This document shows, piece by piece, positions 3,445 to 56,321 of a stretch of 64,000 bases of DNA. Position numbers and translations under genes: made by a program. Source of the DNA: an uncultured virus (IMG/VR IMGVR_UViG_2061766007_000682) (Duplodnaviria; Heunggongvirae; Uroviricota; Caudoviricetes); IMG/VR virus record IMGVR_UViG_2061766007_000682, one strand, 5' to 3'. A model generated the notes under the pieces. The model was given only the letters and a program-made list of their open reading frames with translations, made no database searches and was not told the origin of the DNA. Position 1 is the stretch's first letter. Every line of letters begins with the position of its first letter.

Positions 3445-4032
3445 TTGAGACACGATGAATTAGCACATTATGGTGTCCGCGGTATGAAATGGCGTTTCAA
3501 GAAAGGCATTACTGTTGATCCATCTAATAAGAATGTTAGAATTAAAAGACCTAATGGTGATGTTCGTGTTGAAAGAGAAAAGAACATTTCAATGACCGGG
3601 CCAAATCATAGATTAAGAACCTCCGAGAGAGATGTCGAAAAGAAAACAGAAAAAGATGAATTTAGTAAAATGGCTAATGAAGCGGCTGAAAAAGATAGAA
3701 AAGACCGTGAGGCTCGTGAGCAGTCAGCTAGAGATGCTTACGATGAAGCTTTGCGTTTGGCAAAAGAAAGAGCTGGTAAATCCAGCGGATCTGGTGGATC
3801 TGGCTCTAGTTCTTATAAAGCTGATGATAAACCTGCTGCAAATGCAAAACCGGCAGCTAAAGATAATAAAGGAAGTAATGAAAAGAATGCTTATTATACC
3901 AAGAATGCTAGAGAGATTGAGAGTCAGTATGGCATGAAGCCACACGTTAATGTAATGAACGATGTTGGTAAAGATCCTGAAAAGAAGCAGATTCTCAATG
4001 AAATGAATAAACGGACGTATAAAAAACGGTGA
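3445..4032 (+). CDS. LxH(H/Y)G-tag protein 1
   Basis: N-terminus ELAHYGVRGMKW; basic low-complexity body; TTG start after AAGGAGG. Confidence 0.75.
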   Translation: MRHDELAHYGVRGMKWRFKKGITVDPSNKNVRIKRPNGDVRVEREKNISMTGPNHRLRTSERDVEKKTEKDEFSKMANEAAEKDRKDREAREQSARDAYDEALRLAKERAGKSSGSGGSGSSSYKADDKPAANAKPAAKDNKGSNEKNAYYTKNAREIESQYGMKPHVNVMNDVGKDPEKKQILNEMNKRTYKKR

Positions 4033-4049
4033 GGAAGGAGGATAATAGT

Positions 4050-4655
4050 ATGCGAGATTACGAGTTAGAGGAATTCCTCATGCACTATGGTGTTCCGGGT
4101 ATGAAACGTCCTAGAGGTCTTAAGTATAAGACAAGAGGAAGCACTAGTTTATATGCTAATAGACAGCGCCAAATGTATAGAAGAAATACAGGAGAATCTA
4201 AAGAAGGTTCTAAAGAAGATGGCAAATCTACAGAATGGCGTAAATGGAAAATTCTTAATGACACTAAAAATAATGTTCCTGGTACAGGAACGAATGATGA
4301 TAAGAAACCTAGTATGCCTCCAGTTCAGCAAAGACGCCTTGCGACAAAAAAACTACTGGAGAGGAATGTAATAAATAGCCCTGAAGGTATGTTTTATAGA
4401 ACTCATGAAAAGTTTAAGAACATGTTTAAACCAAAACAGAAAAAGTATAAAGATCCTTACGAAGTAATGAAAGAACGAGAAGATCGTTTAATAAAAAATC
4501 TTAAAGAAAAACATTTAACAAGATATGGTATGCGATATGCACCTAACGTAAATTCAAGAATTCAAAATCCTAAGAAAAAAATAGGATACAATAAAAGGTC
4601 TACGTTAATGCTTCATCGTAAAAATAGAGCACCAACGCACATGAAAGATATATGA
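4050..4655 (+). CDS. LxH(H/Y)G-tag protein 2
   Basis: N-terminus FLMHYGVPGMKRP; very basic body. Confidence 0.75.
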   Translation: MRDYELEEFLMHYGVPGMKRPRGLKYKTRGSTSLYANRQRQMYRRNTGESKEGSKEDGKSTEWRKWKILNDTKNNVPGTGTNDDKKPSMPPVQQRRLATKKLLERNVINSPEGMFYRTHEKFKNMFKPKQKKYKDPYEVMKEREDRLIKNLKEKHLTRYGMRYAPNVNSRIQNPKKKIGYNKRSTLMLHRKNRAPTHMKDI

Positions 4656-4670
4656 AAGGAGGGATGCTAA

Positions 4671-5414
4671 TTGAGAGATTACGATATGGAACGTTTTCTT
4701 ATGCATTACGGTGTTCCGGGTATGAAACGTCCTAAAGGACTTCGCTACAAAACTAGAGGAAGTACTAGTTTGTACGCAAACAGACAGCGTCAAATGCATG
4801 GTGAAGATAATGAGGACAATTCTGAAAGTACAGGAAATAAGTTCTTAGACATTCGGAAGAATCAGGAAAAACAGGCTAAGGAAGCTAAGAAAACAAAAGA
4901 ACAGATTGAAAAATATAGACGTGATAAATGGGTTGATGAATATTCGTCAAAGTTTTTTACTACTAAAGAAACTCCACATAGACAGCATTATAAGGAAGAA
5001 GTTAAGTCTCGTAAACTTGGTAATACTAAAGAACGAGATGACTATCTAAACAAAACAAAGAAATTTAGAGATATTCGGAAGAATCAGGAAGAGGCTATTA
5101 AAACAGCTAAACAGATTGAAAAGTATAGAAAAGATAAGGCCGAAGATGAAAAGCGGGCTAAAGTGAGACAAGAGGCTAAACAAAAAGAAGAAAATAAACG
5201 GAAATTTTTAGATATTCCTAAGAACATAGGAAAACAAGTTGAAGTTGCTAAAAAGCAGAAAAGAGTCAAAGAACAGCAATCTAAAAATGAGTTTAATAAA
5301 TCTGTTCTCGATTTGATCGATAGAAATAGAGCTGAAAGAAACGACGGAAAGATTCAGAGACTTAAAAAGAAGAGAACGTCTTCCAGTAAGTATGGACGTT
5401 CGCGACAGGGTTAA
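4671..5414 (+). CDS. LxH(H/Y)G-tag protein 3
   Basis: First ~42 aa nearly identical to the preceding gene; three internal KF(L/R)DI.KN repeats. Confidence 0.75.
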   Translation: MRDYDMERFLMHYGVPGMKRPKGLRYKTRGSTSLYANRQRQMHGEDNEDNSESTGNKFLDIRKNQEKQAKEAKKTKEQIEKYRRDKWVDEYSSKFFTTKETPHRQHYKEEVKSRKLGNTKERDDYLNKTKKFRDIRKNQEEAIKTAKQIEKYRKDKAEDEKRAKVRQEAKQKEENKRKFLDIPKNIGKQVEVAKKQKRVKEQQSKNEFNKSVLDLIDRNRAERNDGKIQRLKKKRTSSSKYGRSRQG

Positions 5415-5427
5415 GGGGTGATATACA

Positions 5428-6186
5428 ATGAAAAACGAACTATATCACCACGGTATAGACGGACAACGTTGGGGTGTTACTCATGGGCCGCCTTATCCAC
5501 TGTCAAGATCTGAGCATAGAGCTGTTGTTAAAAGTAAAAATGCTATGGAAAAACGTAATGTTTCTTACCGTAAGTCTAGAAAATTTGCTAAGCGAATGTC
5601 TGATGAAGATTTAAATGCCGCTATTGATAGACTTAGGAGAGAAGAGACCTATCGTCAGCTTGTTAGTAAAGATAAAACAGAAAAAGCTCTTAAAAGAGAG
5701 CATAAGCGAGCGAATAAAGAAGAAGTTAAACAGACCAAAGCTCTTAAAAAGGCTCAAGAGCCGACTAAGCCAAAAAATCAAAATGATGGTGTTCTTAAGA
5801 AATCTGTTAAGGAAGCCCTTGGCGGAGGAATTAAGACCATGGGAAATGCTGGCTTCCAGGCTTTAGCTAAAACTATTTGGCCAGATGAAAAGAAAGAAGA
5901 TCAACCACAAGTTGAATACTTTGTTGATAAAGATGGAACCATAAATATTAAAAGTTTAAAAGGAAATACTGCAACTCTTACACCAGATATAGTGAGTATG
6001 ATGCTAGCTAATCAAAAGCAGATGAATTTTAAAGCGCCAAATAATACGAACAATACTTCAACTACGGCTTCTACAAGTAATAATCCTGGAACTGCTTATG
6101 CTGTTCCTAAAGACGAAAATAGAAACCGAATGCTTAAAAATGTATGGAATACAGGATACGATGAGATACAAGATTCTTGGGATTAA
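5428..6186 (+). CDS. LxH(H/Y)G-tag protein 4
   Basis: ELYHHGIDGQRWGVTHGPPYPL; MSDEDL...I.RL..E..Y helix motif. Confidence 0.8.
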   Translation: MKNELYHHGIDGQRWGVTHGPPYPLSRSEHRAVVKSKNAMEKRNVSYRKSRKFAKRMSDEDLNAAIDRLRREETYRQLVSKDKTEKALKREHKRANKEEVKQTKALKKAQEPTKPKNQNDGVLKKSVKEALGGGIKTMGNAGFQALAKTIWPDEKKEDQPQVEYFVDKDGTINIKSLKGNTATLTPDIVSMMLANQKQMNFKAPNNTNNTSTTASTSNNPGTAYAVPKDENRNRMLKNVWNTGYDEIQDSWD

Positions 6187-30589: not shown

Positions 30590-30892
30590 GTGGACTGGAA
30601 AGTACAAGTTGTATTAACTATTGTTACTTCTGTCCTTGCATCCTCAGGTGTATGGGCAGTCGTGGCTAGGATTTTCGATAACAGAAGTGTTAGAACACAA
30701 ATGTTAATTGGACTAGGGCACGATAGAATATGCTTCTTAGGACAGGAGTATATCAAACGTGGATATATTTATACAGATGAGTATGAAAATCTCCACGACT
30801 ACCTATACCAACCATATGCAAAGATGGGCGGTAATGGAACTGCTAAAAGAATAATGGACGAAGTTTCTAAATTGGAGGTGAGGACACGATGA
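30590..30892 (+). CDS. Holin-like membrane protein
   Basis: N-terminal TM helix, Y..MGGNG motif, directly after endolysin. Confidence 0.65.
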   Translation: MDWKVQVVLTIVTSVLASSGVWAVVARIFDNRSVRTQMLIGLGHDRICFLGQEYIKRGYIYTDEYENLHDYLYQPYAKMGGNGTAKRIMDEVSKLEVRTR

Positions 30893-31879
30893 AATATTGG
30901 AGAACAGCCGACCTGGATAATACTCCTAATTATCTAATGCATCATGGTATTCAAGGTCAGAAGTGGGGAGTATCCCATGGACCGCCGTATCCGCTTGGTA
31001 GCGATGTTAGCACTGGTAATAAGCTTAAAACTAAAGTGGTATCTAATTTGCCTCATAAGAGAATATCTGCCAACCGTATGAGAAATTATACAAAGTCTGA
31101 ACAGGCTCGTATTTCAGAAGGACAGACAATGGGAGCTNNNNNNNNNNNNNNNNNNNNNNNNNNNNNNNNAGAGGCATATTAATAGGGAAAATGCAGGACT
31201 TCGTGACAAGAAATACACAAACGATGAACGTGTTCGTATCAATAATGCTTATGAGACAACTGGTTTAATAGGAACTGCCATAAGTAGACATAATGTTAAG
31301 AAAGAAAATAAACAGGCTGCTCAGAAAGAAGCGCTTAGTGTAGTAGATAATATGAATGGCTTTAACAAGGAAGACTTTGAGGTCTCTAAAACAAAGAGGA
31401 CTAAAGATGGTAATAATTATATTATTGAGGTTAGTCATAAAGAAGATCCAGAAATGAGTATGTTTGTTAAAGTAACAAAGGATAAGAATTCGGGAAAGAT
31501 GTCAGTATCTAATATTGGTCTTACTGAGGAAGATGCCAAGTCTGGAAGCAAGGGAAGCAATGCTGAAAAGATTAAGGCTAAGTCTGATTCTTATGATACT
31601 AAGCCTGCCACNNNNNNNNNNNNNNNNNNNNNNNNNNNNNNNNNCATCTAGTAAGTCACGGGACGACAAGCAGAAAAACGCTATTGTAAGTAAGATGAAT
31701 GAACGCGGTGGCAAATTTGCTGGTATTGATAAAGATTCACTTACTAGAGTAAAAGATAGTAGAGAAACTTATGATAATCCAAATGGTACTACCGGAATTA
31801 CTGAAATGTGGACTGATGGCCATGGAAATTATTTTACTNNNNNNNNNNAGAAACAATAGATCAGATAGTAAGAGAATAA
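30889..31879 (+). CDS. LxH(H/Y)G-tag protein 5 (interrupted by gaps)
   Basis: YLMHHGIQGQKWGVSHGPPYPL; an open frame continues between three N gaps to TAA at 31879; end uncertain. Confidence 0.6.
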
Positions 31880-31894
31880 AGGAGGATTATATTT

Positions 31895-32746
31895 ATGATT
31901 TATAAACAGCCTCCTTCTTGGCTTGCTCATCATGGCGTTGAAGGGCAACGTTGGGGTGTTAAACATGGGCCTCCTTATCCGTTAGATGATGATATTAGTA
32001 CTGGAAGTAGATTAAAAATCTCTACAAATAATGATTTTACTGATAAGGATAATTTACGTGTAAAGCATGTTACTCACGTTTATGGTAAACGTAAGGGTCG
32101 TAAAGAAAAGAGCAAGATTTTAAAAGAAAAACAAAGAATAAATGAGAATCAGCAATATTTATATGACAACTATGAAAAAGAAGTAATTGATTATTTAGAT
32201 AAGGCGGATGCTTTTGATAAAAAGTATCGTTCTTTATTTGATGAATATTATGATAATCGAGATAAATACGCCGAAATAGCAGCTAATATAGCTTACGATA
32301 AATGGTCACCTAAATATTCGGATGTTTCTTCTAAAGATTATGACCGAGCTTTTTGGATTTATGGTTATGTAATGGATGATCTTGATCAAGGTAACGATTC
32401 TTCTCAGAGTTTATTTTTTCTTGATAAAAAGAGAAAAAATTATGATAAATTCATGGATCAATACTTGGAAGATAAAGAAATTATGGATGATTCTCGCAGA
32501 AAGCTTTATGATGCTTTGAAAGAAGAACATGGCACTAAACATAAATCTACTAGTACTGTTATAGAGGCTCATGATACATTAGACAAAATTTTAAAAGACA
32601 ACGGTCTTCCAGAAGATTTAGATTATGTAATGTACGAAGCGTATAAAATGGATGATTCAAATTGGAGAAAAGAGCTTTTGGCTGGTATTGACAAATACAA
32701 AGATTCTTCCTTTGATTGGGAACGAATATTAAATGAACAAGAATAA
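31895..32746 (+). CDS. LxH(H/Y)G-tag protein 6
   Basis: WLAHHGVEGQRWGVKHGPPYPL followed by an acidic helical domain. Confidence 0.8.
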   Translation: MIYKQPPSWLAHHGVEGQRWGVKHGPPYPLDDDISTGSRLKISTNNDFTDKDNLRVKHVTHVYGKRKGRKEKSKILKEKQRINENQQYLYDNYEKEVIDYLDKADAFDKKYRSLFDEYYDNRDKYAEIAANIAYDKWSPKYSDVSSKDYDRAFWIYGYVMDDLDQGNDSSQSLFFLDKKRKNYDKFMDQYLEDKEIMDDSRRKLYDALKEEHGTKHKSTSTVIEAHDTLDKILKDNGLPEDLDYVMYEAYKMDDSNWRKELLAGIDKYKDSSFDWERILNEQE

Positions 32747-32758
32747 AGGAGGCCAACA

Positions 32759-33007
32759 ATGACAGACAATCAGAAAAAGTGGTTTAAAGCAGCTGGAATT
32801 CGTGCTCTCAAGACATTCCTGCAGGTAGCTGCCGGTTTCATCACCGTAGGAGCTGCTATCAGCGACATTAAATGGGGAGTGATGTTCTCTACCGCTTTCG
32901 TAGCAGGATTATATTCTCTCATTACAAGTGTAATCACAGGTCTTCCTGAAGCACCGGCAGGATTTAAAGAGGACGAGGATAATAACAATGGACCGACAGA
33001 TACCTAA
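32759..33007 (+). CDS. Holin (r1t-like)
   Basis: W.KAA.IRALKTF.Q, two TM segments, GLPE end. Confidence 0.8.
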   Translation: MTDNQKKWFKAAGIRALKTFLQVAAGFITVGAAISDIKWGVMFSTAFVAGLYSLITSVITGLPEAPAGFKEDEDNNNGPTDT

Positions 33008-33932
33008 TTGGTTAGCTCATCATGGTGTCCAGGGGCAAAAATGGGGGATCAAACATGGTCCTCCATACCCCATCGGTTCGCATCCTAGAAAAGTATTTGT
33101 ATCCGGAACATCTAAATTCAAAGGTAAGTTACCAAAAGAGATAACTAGTAAACTGGATAATTATATTCAGAATAACTACCACATATTAATCGGGGATGCA
33201 CCGGGTATTGATACTGAAGTCCAAAAATATCTGGCGAAGAAAAATCATAGAAATGTTACAATTTATACGATTGAGAACGAACCTAGATTTCAAGCTACGA
33301 ACGATTTAGGTTGGGGAGTTAAGAAAGTCGAGGCTCCTGAATCGGAGATCGTAGACGGGTATAATCCTGCTCAGGTCTATAAGGACAAAGCTATGGCTAA
33401 GGATGCACATATTGGATTGGCAATCCCTATTGAAAACGGTGCTAAAGCTACACGTAAAAATATTGAAAGATTAGAGGGATCCGGCAAGTCGGTAGATGTT
33501 ATCGAACTTGGTACGGACGGGTATAACTCCGAGCAAAAGAACGTTAATTCTTGGGGCAAATCTAAAGACAATAACATATTATATATTTCCGGTAAAGCAG
33601 GAAGTGGAAAATCTTCTAAAGCCTTATCCATGTCTAATAATGTTATACATTTGGATTTCTATTTCGAGCCAGGTTATGAGAAGTATCAGTCTAAGGATTT
33701 CAACAAATATCTTAAACAGCACTTTCCCAATTACAAAGACTTATTAAATAAGGATAAGAACTTTGGAAAGAATCTTGAGAAGTTTGAAAACGTTATTCAA
33801 GATTATGGTAAGTATGCTTTTAACAATGGCGAATCTGTCGTGGTAGAAGGTTTACAGTTACTTGATGGAACTTTATTTCCAGATAGTAATTATTTCAACG
33901 ATAAACCTTATATTTTAATGACAAAAGAATAA
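32988..33932 (+). CDS. LxH(H/Y)G-tag protein 7 with SLOG-like and P-loop kinase-like domains
   Basis: WLAHHGVQGQKWG; VFVSG...IGDAPGID...KD.AM...T..NI (SLOG-like); ISGKAGSGKS Walker A, VVVEG. Confidence 0.75.
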   Translation: MDRQIPNWLAHHGVQGQKWGIKHGPPYPIGSHPRKVFVSGTSKFKGKLPKEITSKLDNYIQNNYHILIGDAPGIDTEVQKYLAKKNHRNVTIYTIENEPRFQATNDLGWGVKKVEAPESEIVDGYNPAQVYKDKAMAKDAHIGLAIPIENGAKATRKNIERLEGSGKSVDVIELGTDGYNSEQKNVNSWGKSKDNNILYISGKAGSGKSSKALSMSNNVIHLDFYFEPGYEKYQSKDFNKYLKQHFPNYKDLLNKDKNFGKNLEKFENVIQDYGKYAFNNGESVVVEGLQLLDGTLFPDSNYFNDKPYILMTKE

Positions 33933-33968
33933 AGGCATCGGATGAAAATCTGGTGTCTTTATTTTTTT
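33931..33968 (+). terminator. Terminator at end of the late region
   Basis: AAAGGCATCGGAT / ATCTGGTGTCTTT stem plus T-run. Confidence 0.8.
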
Positions 33969-33996
33969 CGCGTGGAAAACTGATGGTATTATAGAA
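33967..33996 (+). promoter_or_regulatory. TTCGCR-N17-TATRRAA element (first of the array)
   Basis: Same motif at 34201, 34416, 34773, 35353, 35623, 36063, 36672, 37382, 37564, 37902; gap-truncated at 35057 and 35738. Confidence 0.85.
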
Positions 33997-34019
33997 GAAC
34001 AATAATTGGAGGTGATCTT

Positions 34020-34181
34020 ATGACAAAATTAGAGAGATTGATGATCAGACTTGAAGGGATAGCTAAAAATACAGCTTTCTCTGAGAGATCAGGAATCAGC
34101 TATGATAAAGAAGGAACAAAGGAAGAACTGGAAAACATTATTGGAAAAATCTACGAAGAACTGGATAAGGTAGCGGAGTAA
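34020..34181 (+). CDS. Cassette microprotein (53 aa, helical), ends KVAE
   Basis: RBS GGAGGTGAT; stop codon lies in the loop of the downstream hairpin. Confidence 0.75.
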   Translation: MTKLERLMIRLEGIAKNTAFSERSGISYDKEGTKEELENIIGKIYEELDKVAE

Positions 34182-34242
34182 TATCTGCTCCTTATCTTTT
34201 TTCGCATTATATTCTAACCTTAATATGAAAGGAGGTGATAAC

Positions 34243-34398
34243 ATGAGAACATGCTCGAATTGCAAGTATTCTAAGGTGAATCACGAAGCAGATACTTTTT
34301 ACTGTAAAGTACACTGCGACGATACACCTAAGGAATACGGGGAGAACATGTACTGCGATTATCACGTGTTTAAACCAAGAAGAGAAGGCGCAGAGTAA
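34243..34398 (+). CDS. Cassette microprotein (51 aa, Cys/His-rich), ends EGAE
   Basis: RBS AAAGGAGGTGAT; C..C.Y...C...C..H pattern. Confidence 0.75.
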   Translation: MRTCSNCKYSKVNHEADTFYCKVHCDDTPKEYGENMYCDYHVFKPRREGAE

Positions 34399-34455
34399 TC
34401 TGCCCTTCTTATTTTTTCGCATTATATTCTGTCTCCTATATAGGAGGTGATAAGT

Positions 34456-34731
34456 ATGAACGAATTTGAAAATAAAGTAATAAATGGTATATTTGTTTCA
34501 CAATATGTAGCCGCATGGGTTAAAGAGTGTGGTGGATGTGAATATCATTACATCAAAAAAGATGGAAAGATAGAACGTGTTTGGCCGTTTAGAAAATGGT
34601 TAGAACAGCTTCTTATCAATGGAAGACATCTTACCGATGATGAGGTGAGATTCATAACCAACTTTGCAACTAACGGCAAATTGGAGTTGGAGGCAAATGC
34701 ACGACATTTTAATTCAGAAACAGAACCTTAA
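34456..34731 (+). CDS. Cassette protein, copy 1 of a duplicated gene
   Basis: FENK.INGI..SQYVAAW...NGKLELE; paralogue at 36347. Confidence 0.85.
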   Translation: MNEFENKVINGIFVSQYVAAWVKECGGCEYHYIKKDGKIERVWPFRKWLEQLLINGRHLTDDEVRFITNFATNGKLELEANARHFNSETEP

Positions 34732-34734
34732 GAT

Positions 34735-34774
34735 TAAGGAGGTTACGGACGAAAGTCCGGCCTCTTTATTTTTT
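34735..34774 (+). terminator. Type B hairpin GGAC-GAAA-GTCC
   Basis: Near-identical copy at 36635-36673; related hairpin at 54480. Confidence 0.8.
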
Positions 34775-34822
34775 CGCGCCAACTCCCGGGATCTATATAG
34801 AACATATAAGGAGGATAAAACT

Positions 34823-35017
34823 ATGAAAAAGGTTTATATTGTTACTTACAACAGAGTCGATGCTAAGGGCGTCGTAATCCTGAATGAGATTTGGCATGTT
34901 TCGTCAAGTCTTGGAAGAGCTAAGTGCTGGTGTTGGGATCACCGGCATGTAGAATATATCAACAAGAACGAGAGCGCCAAACTCATCATTGAGGAAGTCG
35001 AAGTCGACGATGAGTGA
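34823..35017 (+). CDS. Cassette microprotein (64 aa)
   Basis: RBS AAGGAGG; MKKVYIV...SS...A...IEEVEVD small phage beta-alpha-beta pattern. Confidence 0.75.
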   Translation: MKKVYIVTYNRVDAKGVVILNEIWHVSSSLGRAKCWCWDHRHVEYINKNESAKLIIEEVEVDDE

Positions 35018-35022
35018 GAGCA

Positions 35023-35058
35023 ATAAGGACGCAGAGTAATCTGCTCCTTATATTTTTT
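35023..35058 (+). terminator. Type A hairpin TAAGGA-C-GCAGA-GTAA-TCTGC-TCCTTA
   Basis: Identical core at 36247, 36861 and 37532; variants at 34165 and 34384. Confidence 0.85.
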
Positions 35059-35112
35059 CGCNNNNNNNNNNNNNNNNNNNNNTATAAAAATAATTTTTAG
35101 GAGGAAACAACT

Positions 35113-35274
35113 ATGAAAAACGAAATGGAAATGAAAAAGGATATGGTAACTCGGCTTAACAAGACCATTGAGGGACTGGAGAACCAGAAACTCAATGCGA
35201 AAAATGCTGAGGAATGGCAATTCCTTGACAAATTGGAACGTAGTTTTCAGGAAGAACTAGATGCAGTAACATAA
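35113..35274 (+). CDS. Cassette microprotein (53 aa, coiled)
   Basis: RBS AGGAGG; MKNEMEMKKDMVTRL...DAVT. Confidence 0.7.
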   Translation: MKNEMEMKKDMVTRLNKTIEGLENQKLNAKNAEEWQFLDKLERSFQEELDAVT

Positions 35275-35402
35275 AGGAATTATTATTCAATGATACGGAG
35301 CGTTAACAGCGCTCTTTATCTTTTTCGTTTACAAATCTATCTATTATATTTTTTCGCGCCAAAAACACACCTCCATATAGAACAACAAAGGAGGACAAAA
35401 CT

Positions 35403-35579
35403 ATGAAAAGAGCAATGTTAATTAAGTTGGTAGTTGGATGTATCATTCTTACATCTGGTTGTGGAGGAGACAAAACTGAAACAACTAAGAAGAAAGAAGA
35501 TAGACTTCCAAATGCCACTTATTGGGAAGATGTCTTGGTAGAAGAAACCTTAGTTGAAGAAACAATTATCGGGTGGTGA
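35403..35579 (+). CDS. Cassette lipoprotein-like microprotein (58 aa)
   Basis: MKR, hydrophobic stretch, lipobox-like LTSG-C; stop TGA lies inside the downstream hairpin. Confidence 0.7.
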   Translation: MKRAMLIKLVVGCIILTSGCGGDKTETTKKKEDRLPNATYWEDVLVEETLVEETIIGW

Positions 35580-35604
35580 AATATCCACCCTTTAATTTTT
35601 TTTT
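35571..35604 (+). terminator. Type C hairpin GGGTGG-TGAAATAT-CCACCC
   Basis: Identical copy at 37354-37383. Confidence 0.8.
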
Positions 35605-35649
35605 GCCGACAAACCTGGCACGGACGCGTTATATTCTGCTACTAATATG

Positions 35650-35730
35650 AAAGGATAATATTAGCTCAGTAGGGAGAGCACCGATCTAACAAATTGGAGG
35701 TCCTGGGTTCGATCCCCAGATTTATCCTTT
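35650..35730 (+). tRNA. tRNA-like RNA, anticodon AAC (Val), atypical acceptor stem
   Basis: D arm GCTC/GAGC, anticodon stem CCGAT/ATTGG with loop CTAACAA, T arm CTGGG-TTCGATC-CCCAG; acceptor stem extended and bulged, no CCA. Confidence 0.75.
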
Positions 35731-35794
35731 ATATTTTTTCGCGTAGAAAACGGTTCTNNNNNNNNNNNNNNNNNNNNNNNNNNNNNNNNNNATT

Positions 35795-36009
35795 ATGGGT
35801 TTTATTAACAAAATTTGGAATACAAAGTGTATGAGATGCGACGAAGAATTTCCTAAAACTCAGGCGCATTCTGTAGTAGTAGATACTAAACAGTATCTGC
35901 TATGCAAGAAATGTGCTTGGGATGTGGAAGTCCTGTTGCATTGTTCGCCACTTCCAAAATTCGGAGATGAAGGCGACATGAAAGTCATTCCATCAGAGAA
36001 TTCAAAAGA
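35795..36009 (+). CDS. Cassette zinc-finger-like protein (3' end in gap)
   Basis: CMRC...LCKKC. Confidence 0.6.
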
Positions 36010-36106
36010 NNNNNNNNNNNNNNAAATTAGAGATCGGACAAAAGTCTGGTCTTCTAATTTTTTTCGCATTATATTCTGTTATCAATATGAAAGGATGGTG
36101 ATAAAA

Positions 36107-36262
36107 ATGTTATGGTTGTTATTAGCATTTATAGTATGCCTTATACTCAGTATATCGAGTGAATATACATTCTTTATTGTATTGGGTATTGGTATAGGGT
36201 TGCTTATAGACTACATACCATTTGCAATAGCAATACTTTTGGAACGTAAGGACGCAGAGTAA
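36107..36262 (+). CDS. Cassette membrane microprotein (51 aa, 2 TM), ends KDAE
   Basis: RBS AAAGGATGGTGAT; hydrophobic; stop in hairpin loop. Confidence 0.75.
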   Translation: MLWLLLAFIVCLILSISSEYTFFIVLGIGIGLLIDYIPFAIAILLERKDAE

Positions 36263-36346
36263 TCTGCTCCTTATTTTTTTTTTTTTTNNNNNNNNNNNNN
36301 NNNNNNNNNNNNNNNNNNNNNNNNNNNNNNNNNNNNGGAATGTAAA

Positions 36347-36631
36347 ATGGACGAATTTGAGAACAAAGTTATAAATGGAATATTTACCTCACAGTATGTA
36401 GCCGCGTGGGTTAAAGAGCGTGGTGAATGCGGATATCATTACATCAAGAAAGATGGAAAGATAGAGCGTGTTTGGCCGTTTAAAAAATGGTTAGAACAGC
36501 TTCTTATCAATGGAAGGCATCTTACTGATGATGAAGTCCGATTCATTACGAACTTTGCCACTAACGGTAAACTAGAACTGCAGGCAAATGCACAACATTT
36601 TAGTTTTAATGACGAAATGGTAGAACCTTAG
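36347..36631 (+). CDS. Cassette protein, copy 2 of a duplicated gene
   Basis: Highly similar to 34456-34731. Confidence 0.85.
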   Translation: MDEFENKVINGIFTSQYVAAWVKERGECGYHYIKKDGKIERVWPFKKWLEQLLINGRHLTDDEVRFITNFATNGKLELQANAQHFSFNDEMVEP

Positions 36632-36715
36632 GGTTAAGGAGGTACGGATGAAAGTCCGGCCTCTTTATTTTTTCGCATCAGAATCATATCTCTATATGAA
36701 AGGATGGTGATTTAC

Positions 36716-36877
36716 ATGCTTATGTTTATTGGACTAATTGTACTGGTTTCAAAGTTATGTATAGCCCTTAACATACAAACAGAATATGTGATAGGGATTA
36801 TATGGGGGCTTGGAATCATGGAAGCTATAAACATGCATAGACTTGTTTTATACATGAAGTATAAGGACGCAGAGTAA
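36716..36877 (+). CDS. Cassette membrane microprotein (53 aa, 2 TM), ends KDAE
   Basis: RBS AAAGGATGGTGAT; MLMFIGLIVLV...YKDAE. Confidence 0.75.
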   Translation: MLMFIGLIVLVSKLCIALNIQTEYVIGIIWGLGIMEAINMHRLVLYMKYKDAE

Positions 36878-37187
36878 TCTGCTCCTTATTTTTTTTTTTT
36901 TNNNNNNNNNNNNNNNNNNNNNNNNNNNNNNNNNNNNNNNNNNNNNNNNNNNNNTAAACTGTAAACATCGTGATGAGTGTTGCTATAGAGGAGGCTATAG
37001 TGATCATAATTCATGGATGAGTTTACATGGCGGTATGAACCCGTATTCTGATCGTTGNNNNNNNNNNNNNNNNNNNNNNNNNNNNNNNNNNNNNNNNNNN
37101 NNNNNNNNNNNNNNNNNNNNNNNNNNNNNNNNNNNNNNNNNNNNNNNNNNNNNNNNNNNNNNNNNNNNNNNNNNNNNNNNNNNNNNN

Positions 37188-37346
37188 AAAAGGTTGTGGC
37201 TTACAGGTGTCATCATTCCCGTAGCAGGGATGTGTGTGACATTGTATGCTCACGTGCCGGAAGTACGAAGGGCTGTCAACGATATGCCTCACAATATCAA
37301 GAAGAGGGTGGCTCATCTTAAGAACCGCTTTCACAGAAAGGAGTGA
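37188..37346 (+). CDS. Cassette protein, 3' part (start in gap)
   Basis: Hydrophobic segment then basic tail; followed by type C hairpin. Confidence 0.5.
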   Translation, partial: KRLWLTGVIIPVAGMCVTLYAHVPEVRRAVNDMPHNIKKRVAHLKNRFHRKE

Positions 37347-37425
37347 AGTATCTGGGTGGTGAAATATCCACCCTTTAATTTTTCGCATTATATTCTGTCC
37401 TTTAGATGAAAGGATGGTGATTTAT

Positions 37426-37545
37426 ATGACTGGAATGAGAGATAGTATGAATGACTGTGATTTGAAAAGTAGTTACGAATGCTATTCTGGAATGAGAGAT
37501 AGTATGAATGATGACGACATTAAAGAATGTGAGGACGCAGAGTAA
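37426..37545 (+). CDS. Cassette microprotein (39 aa) with internal duplication, ends EDAE
   Basis: RBS AAAGGATGGTGAT; GMRDSMND occurs twice. Confidence 0.65.
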   Translation: MTGMRDSMNDCDLKSSYECYSGMRDSMNDDDIKECEDAE

Positions 37546-37630
37546 TCTGCTCCTTATATTTTTTTCGCGTCAGAATCGTACCTCTATATAGAACTGTAAG
37601 ATCTATATAACTTTTAAGGAGGAACTTATT

Positions 37631-37848
37631 ATGGCAAGTTTTAAAGAATCTTTTAAAAACGGTATGGCGAAGCAGGGCGGAGAAATGGCAGCAAGCGTTG
37701 TCCTTTCAGCAGCANNNNNNNNNNNNNNNNNNNNNNNNNNNNNNNNNNNNNNNNNNNNNNNNNNNNNNGAACTGATGAAACAACGCCGACACAGGAATCG
37801 GTAGAACTTCCAAAAGAGATCAAAGAAGAACAGACAAAAGAGCCGTGA
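37631..37848 (+). CDS. Cassette protein, paralogue of 37971-38195 (central gap)
   Basis: Shared leader and C-terminal ELPKE..KEE..KEP. Confidence 0.65.
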
Positions 37849-37970
37849 GACTCTATAAACTTCACATGAANNNNNNNNNNAGTCTCCTAATCTTTTTTAA
37901 ATTCGCGTGAAAAACGTATCTCTATATAGAACTGTAAGATCTATATACAAAAATTTAGGAGGAACTTATT

Positions 37971-38195
37971 ATGGCAAAAGTAACAGAAGACATGAAGAAC
38001 TTTGCAGCTTATGGCGTAGCTGCTGGACTTGCACTTGGCCTGACGGTTGGAGTGACCCACTTGGTCGCAAAAGCTGGAAGCGCTATTGCAAACAAGCACA
38101 CTGCTAAAAAGGCGGCAAAACTGGAAGAAAAGAAGAAGCCCGTAGTAACGGAGCTTCCAAAAGAAGTAGTAAAGGAAGAACAGAAAGAGCCGTGA
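37971..38195 (+). CDS. Cassette single-TM protein with charged tail
   Basis: RBS AGGAGG; Ala/Gly-rich hydrophobic helix. Confidence 0.75.
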   Translation: MAKVTEDMKNFAAYGVAAGLALGLTVGVTHLVAKAGSAIANKHTAKKAAKLEEKKKPVVTELPKEVVKEEQKEP

Positions 38196-38215
38196 GACTC
38201 TCAATTTCTCACAGG

Positions 38216-38256
38216 AAAGGAGATTGGATGAAAAATCTGATCTCCTGATCTTTTTT
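38216..38256 (+). terminator. Type D hairpin AGGAGATT.GA / TC...TCTCCT
   Basis: Related hairpins at 42641 and 45539, partial at 37881. Confidence 0.75.
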
Positions 38257-38285
38257 GCCTAATTATATTTAAGGAGGTGATTGAT

Positions 38286-38396
38286 ATGGCAGATTGTAAA
38301 TCTTGTAGGCATCATACGATATGCAATATTATATTTAAAAGTAAAAAGAATCCTTTTTGTAAGCAGGAGGTAAACAACCATGTCACATACAGTTAA
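38286..38396 (+). CDS. Small Cys-rich protein (36 aa)
   Basis: RBS AAGGAGGTGAT; CKSC....C....C. Confidence 0.5.
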   Translation: MADCKSCRHHTICNIIFKSKKNPFCKQEVNNHVTYS

Positions 38397-47914: not shown

Positions 47915-48106
47915 ATGCTTAGGACATGTCCATTTAAAGAAGTCAGAATAGAAAAAAGAGATGGAAACACAACAACGCAGAGTATTGAATACGGTGATTG
48001 TGTTCGATGGAGCTGCCCGTTCTTCACATGTACTCATGGATCATGGGGAGAGGATGTCTGCAAACGGGTAGACTTATATTTAAAAACCGGAGGAAACATT
48101 AAATGA
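47915..48106 (+). CDS. Small Cys-rich protein
   Basis: CPF...C....CPF...C. Confidence 0.6.
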   Translation: MLRTCPFKEVRIEKRDGNTTTQSIEYGDCVRWSCPFFTCTHGSWGEDVCKRVDLYLKTGGNIK

Positions 48107-48870
48107 AATCATCAACATTACACTGGTTAATCGGTATTGGAACCGTATTAACAGCGGTAGCAACAGGAATTACGACAAAAATTGCATCAGATAAGGTAAA
48201 TGAAGAGCGTCAAGTACGTCAGCAACAGGATCCAGGCTTCACGGATTTGACGAAATGGGAGAAATTTAAGATCTATGCACGCTGGGAAACCATTCCCTTG
48301 ACCATGGCAATAGGTACTGGAGCAGGTATTTATCAGTCATATAAGGAGTCTCAGGAAGCGATTAAAACAGTCAGTAGCGTAGCTTCGGGGGCAAGCACCT
48401 TTATAAATGGCTACAGAGACCTAACAAAAGAGGCTCTTGGAGCGAAGAAAGAAGATGCTATTTACACGAAAGCAGTGCAGGAAAATGTAATGCCAAAGAC
48501 AGTTCCGGCCAATCTAATCCTTGGAGAGAACGATTGTTTATGCATGGTTATCTCTCCAGGACTAGATGAAGTCGGTAGCGGATTGCCATTTGTTTCAAAT
48601 GCAACTAAGATTAAGGAAGCAACATTGNNNNNNNNNNNNNNNNNNNNNNNNNNNNNNNNNNNCAAATCTATGTTGAATGATGCTTCCTTTTCTATTGTCG
48701 AGTGGTTTGATTATTTAGGTGTTAAGATTGATAACCGAATTTTAGATCATCTTGGATGGACGTATCAACATGATGGAGTGATCGAGATCTCATTTAGAGC
48801 TGGATTAACAAATGATAATAAACCAATCCTGGGAATTGAATTTACGGTGGATCCGCATTATATAGAATAG
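48103..48870 (+). CDS. Membrane-anchored phage protein, paralogue of 55335
   Basis: Gly/Ala-rich TM segments, Y......G..KE, LG...GW motifs. Confidence 0.7.
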   Translation: MKSSTLHWLIGIGTVLTAVATGITTKIASDKVNEERQVRQQQDPGFTDLTKWEKFKIYARWETIPLTMAIGTGAGIYQSYKESQEAIKTVSSVASGASTFINGYRDLTKEALGAKKEDAIYTKAVQENVMPKTVPANLILGENDCLCMVISPGLDEVGSGLPFVSNATKIKEATLXXXXXXXXXXXXKSMLNDASFSIVEWFDYLGVKIDNRILDHLGWTYQHDGVIEISFRAGLTNDNKPILGIEFTVDPHYIE

Positions 48871-54589: not shown

Positions 54590-55318
54590 ATGTCATTACC
54601 AAAGTCATCGTTAAATGGTAACTTTCCTGATAACAGTGATTTCCAACTGACTGATAGTATTAAAACGGCAGAAGGTTTGACAAAGAAAGTTATCCAAGGG
54701 AAAGCGATTGAAGGTAAAAGTAATGCGTTGACAGCTGCTAAAGACTCATTCCTTTATCATGATGGCGAATCCATAGGATCAACTATCATGGAAACAGTTG
54801 TCTTGCCTGCAGCTAAGAATTTAGCAAGTAATGTAGTTGGTAGTTTCTTCGATATTGTGGTTGATTCAATCAATAATATTATATTTAAAGACGACCCAAC
54901 TCATGCTCGAGGATCATCGTATACGAAAGGAACCGGATATGTTGGCTATAGCTCTATTTTTAATAATAACTCTGGCTATTATAATGTTACTCCTTGCTCT
55001 TCTGGGTATCGCAGTAGCATTAACAATCAAGCTATTTCTCCTGCTTCTCCTACTATCCCCAATCGTTATAATAATATCATTCTTGAGAATCGTGGTGAAG
55101 CGGAAACATTCATAGACGATCTGCTTGATACGGTAAATCGTTATCAATCTATTAGTGTAGCAAATGTATATGCTAAGTTGGATTGGGTATCAACGTTCCA
55201 GGATACGAAATGGGGTTGGACGCCGGATATCCTTAATCCAAATACGATCGTTAAAAGGCGTGTTGCAAACGGAGCATGGCGTATTATATTGCCACGTCCG
55301 GTAGCTATTGATATTTAA
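54590..55318 (+). CDS. Conserved-type phage hypothetical protein
   Basis: V.LPAAK...R.EAE...SVA..Y...D.KWGW...LP.P. Confidence 0.75.
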   Translation: MSLPKSSLNGNFPDNSDFQLTDSIKTAEGLTKKVIQGKAIEGKSNALTAAKDSFLYHDGESIGSTIMETVVLPAAKNLASNVVGSFFDIVVDSINNIIFKDDPTHARGSSYTKGTGYVGYSSIFNNNSGYYNVTPCSSGYRSSINNQAISPASPTIPNRYNNIILENRGEAETFIDDLLDTVNRYQSISVANVYAKLDWVSTFQDTKWGWTPDILNPNTIVKRRVANGAWRIILPRPVAIDI

Positions 55319-55334
55319 AAGGAGGTTAAATAAA

Positions 55335-56321
55335 ATGGGATTCAAAGAAACTATTCTTGAGAAGACCGCAGGCGCAAGATTGTTCTACAAGGATCATCAG
55401 TCTGAGATTGAAATTGGAACTGGTATTGCGTGTTTCGCTCTGTCTGTTATCACAGCAGCTAGAGCAGGAATTAAAACAAAGAAGATCATTGATGATTACA
55501 ACAAAGCTGCATGCGAGGCCGAGGTGCATCGTCAGGAAGGCATGGTAACCGTTTGGTCTGACAATCAGCAGGAGATCATACCGTATACGGAAGAGGATTT
55601 TAAAAAGGAACTCCGTAACATCAAGCTTCGTACGGCCGGTAAGATCGCAGTAACATGGGCTCCTTCAGCTCTCGGCTTTGCCGGAGGTACAAGTCTTGTC
55701 CTGCATAGTCATCATCTAATGGCTCAATCTAACATTGCTCTTGCCGCTGCACTTAAGACAAGTGAAGAACAGCTTAAGAAGTACAGGGATAAGAATGCAG
55801 AAAAGATTGGCGAAGAAAAAGAACAGCAGGTGTATGACGGTCAGGAAACTGAGAAGAAAGGCAAGAAAGAGTATGTTCTTCAGGGCACACCGTTATCTAA
55901 ATATGCCAGACTGATGAGTAAGGATACGCTCGGTCGTTCTGCTGATTGGTGCAACAGCTCGTGCGATTATAATTTCGGACGTGTCAAGAGAATCAATGAG
56001 TGGGCAAATAGACAGCTTAAGATGAATGGCGTTGTAACACGAAGAGAAGTGTATGAAGCGCTTGGCTTCGATGTTACGAATGAAGATCCTGATTGTTCCG
56101 TAGATGGATGGAGACTGAAGAAATATGGTGGTAAGACTGATGAAGGTGGTATTGAGATCAGAATTATTGACCATATCGGTGGAGATCCTAATAATGTAAC
56201 CTATGTACGTGACGAGTTTGGGGACGGTTACGTACGTTCCGCGGATGCATTCTGGATTGATTTAAACTGTGAAGGTTGTATTCTTGCTGTTAGTACATTG
56301 AAGAAGCTTGGAGGAGCGTAA
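55335..56321 (+). CDS. Membrane-anchored phage protein, paralogue of 48103
   Basis: TM segments, YR......GEEKE, EVYEALG...GW, D.NC.G.I. Confidence 0.75.
   Translation: MGFKETILEKTAGARLFYKDHQSEIEIGTGIACFALSVITAARAGIKTKKIIDDYNKAACEAEVHRQEGMVTVWSDNQQEIIPYTEEDFKKELRNIKLRTAGKIAVTWAPSALGFAGGTSLVLHSHHLMAQSNIALAAALKTSEEQLKKYRDKNAEKIGEEKEQQVYDGQETEKKGKKEYVLQGTPLSKYARLMSKDTLGRSADWCNSSCDYNFGRVKRINEWANRQLKMNGVVTRREVYEALGFDVTNEDPDCSVDGWRLKKYGGKTDEGGIEIRIIDHIGGDPNNVTYVRDEFGDGYVRSADAFWIDLNCEGCILAVSTLKKLGGA

Follow-up and report, generated by a model that had tools for sequence, protein, structure and literature searches.

The RNA gene that begins at position 35,649 of an uncultured phage genome very probably encodes a mimic of the tRNA shape that does not decode. 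It belongs to a family which, as judged from its sequences, is spread across many related gut, dairy and soil phages. We call the whole 64,000-nucleotide stretch that was analysed the window, and all positions refer to it. The RNA would probably act in trans. The best explanation of the whole, on which our own judgement is nearly evenly balanced, is a stand-alone, tRNA-shaped non-coding RNA of ~90 nt, uncharged and non-decoding, that would serve as a decoy in trans. The earlier note on this stretch had proposed a tRNA mimic rather than a normal tRNA, and that proposal is supported by the box and terminator of the cassette context, by the family and by the orthologues.

The window is a near-complete siphovirus genome with all of its large genes on one strand. 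The terminase, portal, protease-capsid fusion, tail and lysis genes are followed by small genes and replication genes. The terminase has ~70% identity to that of Streptomyces phage Rima and its kin, which makes this a Rima/1706-like siphovirus, and it matches 251 phage records at E <1e-150, mostly from phages of Arthrobacter, Gordonia, Streptomyces and Lactococcus. Most of the stretch is also present in two runs labelled bovine gut metagenome, which come from one sample, possibly the source. At least seven ORFs with unrelated bodies (3445-6186 and 30889-33932) start with a DUF7211-type HHG motif, and the ORF at 32988-33932 has a weak P-loop/AAA match at its end.

The RNA gene lies in an array of cassettes, each made of a promoter-like box, a short ORF and a terminator hairpin with a T-run. 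Terminator-like sites number 23 in the array versus 2.1 in shuffles. The cassettes may be strong early-type units. Relatives of one cassette protein were sought and none was found, and a literature search on cassette repeats returned nothing useful. One cassette ORF of 91-94 aa is duplicated (34456-34731 and 36347-36631; DNA 87% identical), with one copy in the related contig L096, and a 39-codon cassette ORF (37430-37511) contains a 25-nt exact direct repeat. The features are as follows.

33940..38260, + strand: array of box / short ORF / terminator cassettes with the RNA gene in one slot (repeat families D3-D12)
35624..35648, + strand: promoter-like box of the RNA cassette (variant pentamer 35624-35628, 14-nt spacer, hexamer 35643-35648)
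35649..35661, + strand: purine-rich 5' strand of the closing (acceptor-like) helix, made from the cassette leader, with bulged T35659
35662-35663, + strand: U8-A9, read from the sequence
35664-35667/35676-35679, + strand: D arm, 4-bp stem, loop with G18 G19 G20
35681-35685/35693-35697, + strand: anticodon arm, 5-bp stem including one G.U, canonical 7-nt loop at 35686-35692
35688-35690, + strand: anticodon AAC, in the loop of the window RNA
35698-35702, + strand: variable region, between the anticodon and T arms
35703-35707/35715-35719, + strand: T arm, 5-bp stem, canonical T loop
35720..35739, + strand: 3' strand of the closing helix and T-rich tail, a terminator-like end without CCA
35739..35757, + strand: promoter-like box of the next cassette (hexamer in masked bases; full box readable in L096 and L118)

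The D, anticodon (AAC) and T arms, which the earlier note had described as canonical, are seen in the sequence itself and are recognised by two programs. ARAGORN calls a tRNA-Val(aac) at 35653-35728, the sole tRNA that it calls in the window, and Rfam RF00005 matches with 47.7 bits (E 4.4e-7) and a base inserted in the acceptor stem. No Rfam family other than tRNA matches the window RNA. Eleven base pairs, interrupted by a single bulged T (35659), form the closing helix (35650-35661/35720-35730), a T6 run at 35734-35739 lies 3' of it, and there is no CCA; helix and missing CCA are both as that note had stated. Its observation that the 5' end reuses the leader of protein cassettes also holds, the shared leader being the six-copy repeat family D9. 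The folding energy of the RNA by itself is unremarkable (z -1.36 to -1.90), and a terminator scanner flagged the T arm only, not the long stem. An in-frame amber (CUA) reading of the anticodon loop was rejected as incompatible with the stem.

Could the bulged helix be an assembly error? This was ruled out. A separately assembled contig from run X1, possibly the source sample, covers 35571-36276 without a single differing letter, and the bulge and the whole RNA body are retained in two orthologues, L096 and L118. A contig of another study, X3, covers 35645-36102 with 11 other letters and 19 gaps; since neither the substitutions nor one inserted letter could be placed, it is uninformative on the anticodon. 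The orthologues came from a metagenome scan (27 hits) with a pattern that demanded AAC, so that they do not demonstrate conservation of the AAC, even though their anticodon arm and variable region are identical to those of the window. The window differs from L096 and L118 at three positions, one in the D loop (a T at position 20 of L118) and two in the 3' strand of the helix. Both 3'-strand substitutions turn a Watson-Crick pair into G.U, which fits an RNA transcribed from the + strand. No close orthologue was found in the viral collection with anticodon-arm and T-arm patterns, and blastn of the window RNA against annotated phages returned generic tRNA matches only.

These sequences also show the gene as a movable unit. 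The order of cassettes in L096, L118 and run X3 differs from that in the window. The variant box that precedes the window RNA drives a protein cassette in L096, where the RNA has the standard box, and in X3 yet another box is joined to the RNA. With differing neighbours and swapped boxes, the RNA gene is a shuffled cassette. The array, the orthologues and the X1 and X3 contexts thus bear out that the RNA is cargo of a cassette and that a promoter-like box and a terminator-like end belong to it.

The box was surveyed in the window (33968-37930) and at 141 distinct sites in related loci. Its consensus is TCGCR, 14 nt with a conserved C (91%; this C was outside the search pattern), a TATWAT-like hexamer, and then G or A. 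The conserved C sits about one helical turn after TCGCR. The box of the window RNA has the same spacing as 10 other cassette heads in 33968-37903, and we infer that it has promoter activity. Where would transcripts start? A ribosome-binding match of at least 6 letters begins 1-4 nt past the hexamer in 32 of 112 protein cassettes. In the RNA family, pairing begins at the second base past the hexamer (position 2 G-C in 11 of 13 vs 5.2; position 4 in 15 of 15 vs 10), while at positions 1, 3, 5 and 6 it is not significant. Transcripts would therefore begin right after the hexamer. Such a start is unlike the usual sigma-70 geometry, and the box geometry hints at a phage-specific promoter type; neither an RNA polymerase nor a sigma factor was recognised among the window ORFs scanned. 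The predicted window RNA is leaderless and runs from G35649 to the U tail, about 90 nt.

The first signs of a family were tRNA-shaped sequences right behind the same box among 38 relatives selected by terminase and searched for tRNA and T-loop motifs; in two of them, L138 and L142, a GAAA tetraloop stands where the anticodon would be. When the viral collection was scanned with a pattern that demands box, T loop and T-run, at least 106 stretches matched, versus one for a control with the T loop reversed. From these 80 loci were kept, representing 68 distinct sequences, which together with L142, the window and its orthologues gave 51 clusters at 80% identity among the matches listed.

Outside the pattern, the 51 clusters among the matches listed have a 4-bp D stem in 46, U8 in 45, G10 in 47, A14 in 44 and A21 in 45, counts that are approximate because the arm parser was wrong for L142, L154, L173, L178, L198 and L202. 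On the same matches and with the same tolerance, at least 4 of 5 anticodon-stem pairs form in 41 of 51 clusters, the anticodon loop has 7 nt in 7 and is canonical in 3, the window included, and CCA at position 74 occurs in none. Neither the length (3-11 nt) nor the sequence of the anticodon loop is fixed, and the loop is often a tetraloop. The closing stem is 8-16 bp and the T stem 5 bp. Every copy found by a promoter-free model or by the AAC pattern has the box directly upstream.

Pairing was counted in an alignment of 47 members that left out the window cluster, L142, L196 and L202, with a structure set by hand on that same alignment. Paired cells make up 84.0%, versus 65.0 in shuffles and 36-57 with slid partners, and changes on both sides of a pair number 242 vs 87 in shuffles. 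The D stem is 94.6% paired and the T stem 96.2%, the D-loop GG is present in 46 of the 47, and 29 of 44 have complementary bases at the Levitt pair 15:48, vs 17.2 when shuffled. Within nine clusters of close relatives, variable sites are 9/76 at the anticodon tip, 8/69 in the D loop, 1/72 in the D stem and 2/90 in the T stem. Kinship of the members inflates these conservation counts, yet elbow and anticodon loop plainly differ. DNA-level repair of inverted repeats can also create complementarity in the outer stem. Taken together, the comparisons indicate that the D arm, the T arm, the tertiary contacts and the long closing stem are under selection, and that the anticodon loop is not. The earlier note had named decay of arm pairing in relatives as a sign of a pseudogene. 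In the family the D and T stems are kept with compensatory changes, and a canonical anticodon arm remains in 3 of the 51 clusters among the matches listed.

Are these sequences simply decaying tRNA pseudogenes, or relics of attachment sites, that serve only as terminators? With about 36-56 bits the family loci score low against Rfam tRNA, their closing stem and T-run are like the terminators of the array, and the anticodon arms look eroded. Decay does not readily account for the compensatory changes in the D stem, T stem and Levitt pair, for the near-invariant D-loop GG or for a box directly upstream, and no integrase was found among the 66 window ORFs scanned against Pfam. We regard this explanation as highly improbable.

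A closer fit to the family than to tRNA is also seen with model R1, which was built from the 47 aligned members and so excluded the window cluster. With R1 the window reaches 68.4 bits, and its orthologues reach 68.3 and 68.0; the Rfam tRNA model gives the window 47.7. Other tRNA genes in the R1 control loci reach at most 50 bits, but the left-out members score 48 (L142), 41 (L202) and 31 (L196), so that R1 does not separate all members from tRNAs. In its sequence the window RNA has the family traits, starting right after the box hexamer and ending in a long stem and U tail without CCA. It departs from the typical member in its anticodon loop, which is canonical and not degenerate, and this perfect anticodon arm is a counterpoint to its reading as a mimic.

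It is in this context that a working, if odd, tRNA-Val(AAC) must be weighed. Such a tRNA would be trimmed, receive its CCA from the host and read GUU; or, cut to leave a G-1:C73 pair, it would be mischarged with histidine. The window RNA has the valine elements A35, C36, G20 and G45 along with its canonical arm, and GUU is the commonest valine codon in the window (323/746). Engineered A34 tRNAs are matured and active in E. coli (bioRxiv 10.64898/2026.05.15.725136), so A34 alone does not mark a tRNA as non-functional. Regular stems and CCA are also found in bacterial genes for tRNA-Val(AAC). Valine identity, however, needs A73 and a regular acceptor helix, and in E. coli charging suffers when the third or fourth pair is G.U (PMC9976931). 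The window RNA has C at 73 in a 7-bp register, and its helix is bulged, A-U-rich and 11 bp long instead of regular and 7 bp; in L118, base 20 is U and the helix includes a G.U pair. Codon usage reveals no special need for a GUU reader, the U-ending share of valine codons (43%) lying within that of the other four-codon boxes (38-59%). Finally, R1, the model of the non-decoding relatives, fits the window better than the tRNA model does. A working tRNA-Val is therefore very unlikely in our view.

The regular genes just mentioned are observations in their own right. A tRNA-Val(AAC) with a 7-bp stem and CCA is present in Clostridia/Christensenellales genomes and metagenome contigs (L095, L101, L108, L111, L117, L122, L124, L128) and is apparently a natural bacterial A34 valine tRNA. 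In L100, L104, L110, L112 and L126, tRNA-Val(AAC) with CCA stands in tandem with tRNA-Val(TAC) in several contigs, one of this set coming from a genome titled uncultured proteobacterium. Phages L088-L091 have a tRNA-Val(AAC) inside a tRNA cluster (1975-2066), with an irregular acceptor stem and no CCA; they have no terminase homologue and were set aside as unrelated. The terminase relative L081 has a regular tRNA-Ile(TAT) at 1501-1577. This anticodon is rare in bacteria.

The earlier note had placed weight on the A34 anticodon, which the family does not support, its anticodon loop being free in length and sequence. The AAC of the window RNA is probably incidental. The suggestions of a decoy that presents its anticodon to an anticodon nuclease, or of a T-box ligand, do not fit either, since the anticodon loops of the family are degenerate. 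A T-box ligand requires pairing of the anticodon with the specifier as well as an NCCA end. Among the matches listed, all three clusters with canonical loops have A34 (AAC, AUA and AAA), and host-type anticodons may be avoided in such loops; this is no more than a hint, given the A-rich loops and a window chosen for its A34. ARAGORN either misses family members or calls them tRNA-Stop (tta), Pyl (cta), SeC (tca) or A34 tRNAs, so such calls here are not evidence of stop-codon recoding or unusual decoding. The L153 cluster (12 loci), L205 and L189, called tRNA-Stop (tta), Pyl (cta) or SeC (tca), could be mistaken for suppressor tRNAs.

The carriers are Rima/Deejayvirinae/1706-like siphoviruses, the window included, as judged by terminase. 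A terminase homologue was present in 34 of 50 carrier records tested (of 80), and in 25 of 25 of those at least 90% complete. Among six complete genomes selected by terminase, two are clear carriers, one has an element with a T arm only and three have none, which marks the RNA gene as accessory. Among nine named phage records, R1 was positive in Lactococcus P078 and CHPC971, Gordonia Duffington and D_HF5_2C, and had no match in Rima, Gordon, Circum and Camille. The RNA is also present in Lactococcus P092 and in four more Gordonia phages, all chosen through blastn hits, and the Gordonia copies have tetraloops. The cultured carriers include Lactococcus P078, P092 and CHPC971, and Gordonia Duffington, Jodelie19, Madvan, AlainaMarie and OhMyWard. 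In P078 and Duffington the RNA is unannotated and lies, as in the window, in a cassette array after the structural genes. Four extra copies found with R1 were read, and all four have the box directly upstream. A hit in the record of L294 was rejected as an ordinary tRNA-Met, and weak hits in L314, L317 and L318 lack the standard T loop. A second RNA type behind the same box (L134 at 270-372, and L135) has a long closing stem, a T arm and one hairpin but no D arm, and lies upstream of the last gene of the genome.

The sequences that follow the RNA gene bear on a cis-acting role. As a tRNA-shaped 5' leader it might be an attenuator, an RNase Z/RNase P processing signal or an mRNA stabiliser, and the stand-alone copies would be by-products of shuffling. 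Among the matches listed, an ORF without a recognised box follows in 37 of the 51 clusters, a new box in 6 and neither in 8; a ribosome-binding site and start codon belong to the following ORF likewise in 37 of 51. A leader role fits this pattern as well. Ordinary tRNA genes follow in two clusters. Many copies lie directly upstream of a related ~250-aa gene, likely DUF6353 (L169, L170, L175, L179, L187, L194, L197, L203, L206, L215, L223). For DUF6353 and the PHROG 4079 protein the Atlas returned no function. Two DUF6353 genes lie in other parts of the window (48103-48870 and 55308-56321).

Several observations run against a leader. A new box stands immediately behind the RNA in the window, L096, L118, P078, P092 and four Gordonia phages, and there the fold is kept, with compensatory changes. 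The genes downstream of family RNAs vary widely, and the predicted RNA has no leader that RNase P could remove. Past an ordinary protein cassette (38218-38290), too, a terminator precedes an ORF that lacks a box. Behind one and the same RNA, four Gordonia phages have a new box and a fifth has a ribosome-binding site, so that the downstream gene looks incidental. On balance a cis-acting element seems rather unlikely. The gene's own box and terminator-like end would most simply give a free RNA.

How might a free RNA work? Transcription from a phage-type promoter would begin at the first base past the hexamer and stop at the closing stem and U tail, so that the RNA would have neither a leader for RNase P nor a CCA end. 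The RNA would offer its D/T elbow and its acceptor-T helix in trans to a host protein that reads tRNA shape, and that protein would be tied up by a substrate that can neither be charged nor cut normally. What is kept in the family appears to be what shape readers see, the elbow and the long acceptor-T helix; what is lost appears to be what synthetases, ribosomal decoding and T-boxes need. The likeliest class of target would be anti-phage effectors that attack tRNA. Host defences do cut tRNA (PMC10264068). We put the decoy first because such tRNA-attacking defences exist and because accessory cassette arrays would be the expected sites of counter-defence. The decoy is also favoured by the patchy presence of the RNA and by its two or three full-length copies in several genomes. 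That an anti-defence decoy is the actual job of the RNA is plausible, though we hold it with less than even confidence.

Housekeeping tRNA-handling enzymes likewise recognise tRNA by its elbow and acceptor-T helix and ignore the anticodon. The RNA might therefore be an inhibitor or sponge in trans of RNase P, RNase Z, the CCA-adding enzyme or modification enzymes, and aid host takeover instead of counter-defence. The conserved elbow/acceptor-T surface matches what these enzymes read, and several tRNA-handling enzymes recognise YrlA (PMC4201824). A phage needs mature host tRNA, however, the presence of the RNA is patchy, and several carriers encode ordinary tRNAs as well. We consider such a sponge unlikely.

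If the decoy reading is true of the family, a lineage of phages of Bacillota and Actinomycetota would make anticodon-independent tRNA-shaped decoys, from its own promoter type, against immune effectors that attack tRNA. This wider proposal is the more tentative one. The window member would then be a recently recruited or little-eroded copy, with its A34 outside the usual anticodon set of the host. RNA anti-CRISPRs mimic crRNA, and counter-defence by tRNA shape might be compared with them. It would mean a widespread, unannotated class of non-coding tRNA mimics in phages, for which cultured carriers are available for tests, and it bears on the old question of the purpose of odd phage tRNA genes.

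Literature searches, mostly of open-access papers, found no account of this family, which RNA-motif catalogues in supplements may nevertheless contain. Comparison with known systems begins with tRNA itself. The window RNA shares with tRNA (RF00005) and tRNA-Val the cloverleaf order, the D and T arms and the tertiary bases. It is unlike tRNA-Val in its 11-bp bulged helix that runs into a U tail and in lacking A73 and CCA, and its relatives have lost the anticodon loop. Allo-tRNAs (8/4 and 9/3) have longer acceptor stems too and occur in bacteria and phages, but they have a 12-bp branch and a short T stem (3-4 bp) and are chargeable (PMC5389517); the window RNA has a 5-bp T stem, an 11-bp closing stem and no CCA.

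Bacterial Y RNAs (YrlA; Yrn1 of Deinococcus) are likewise non-decoding tRNA mimics that also occur in phages, and in Yrn1 an anticodon arm with a 6-nt loop has been modelled, alongside a long terminal stem (PMC4201824). YrlA is permuted, with its T arm before its D arm, and lies beside Ro60, unlike the window RNA with its order of D, anticodon and T arms (PMC4201824). A TROVE/Ro60 gene was found in 0 of 27 carrier genomes, with the control positive in 2 of 14 genomes; TROVE had no match among the window ORFs scanned, nor YrlA in the Rfam scan of the loci. The consensus of the Streptococcus sRNA SpF41 (RF02435) reads as tRNA-shaped, with D-like and T arms and a 4-nt loop in place of the anticodon, and shares the long closing stem and U tail of the family. 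One of 12 loci tested matched it, L216 at 1501-1579 with 42.5 bits, which is below the gathering score of 52; the window RNA gave no hit at E up to 5. SpF41 is chromosomal and was detected by Northern blot, and its source paper does not, in part of its text at least, call it tRNA-like (PMC3395615). That the RF02435 consensus resembles an anticodon-less tRNA mimic is our own observation, on which the same portion of that paper is silent (PMC3395615).

The tRNA-Other of Bacillus cereus is also a tRNA-like element outside translation that was recruited elsewhere, but it is a single island-flanking element inside longer RNAs and not a family of phage genes with box and terminator (PMC3399842). Phage tRNAs that resist anticodon nucleases have altered anticodon loops tied to host defences that cut tRNA; they replace depleted host tRNAs, whereas most members of this family cannot decode (PMC10264068). 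The array, for its part, resembles the PeSL cassettes of the T4-type phages RB49 and phi1, in which repeats of promoter and stem-loop terminator shuffle small non-essential genes. These belong to another phage group and have another promoter type, and their description, in part of its text at least, names no RNA-gene cargo (PMC2839356). Non-coding RNAs that mimic tRNA are thus an already known kind, and what is new here is the family.
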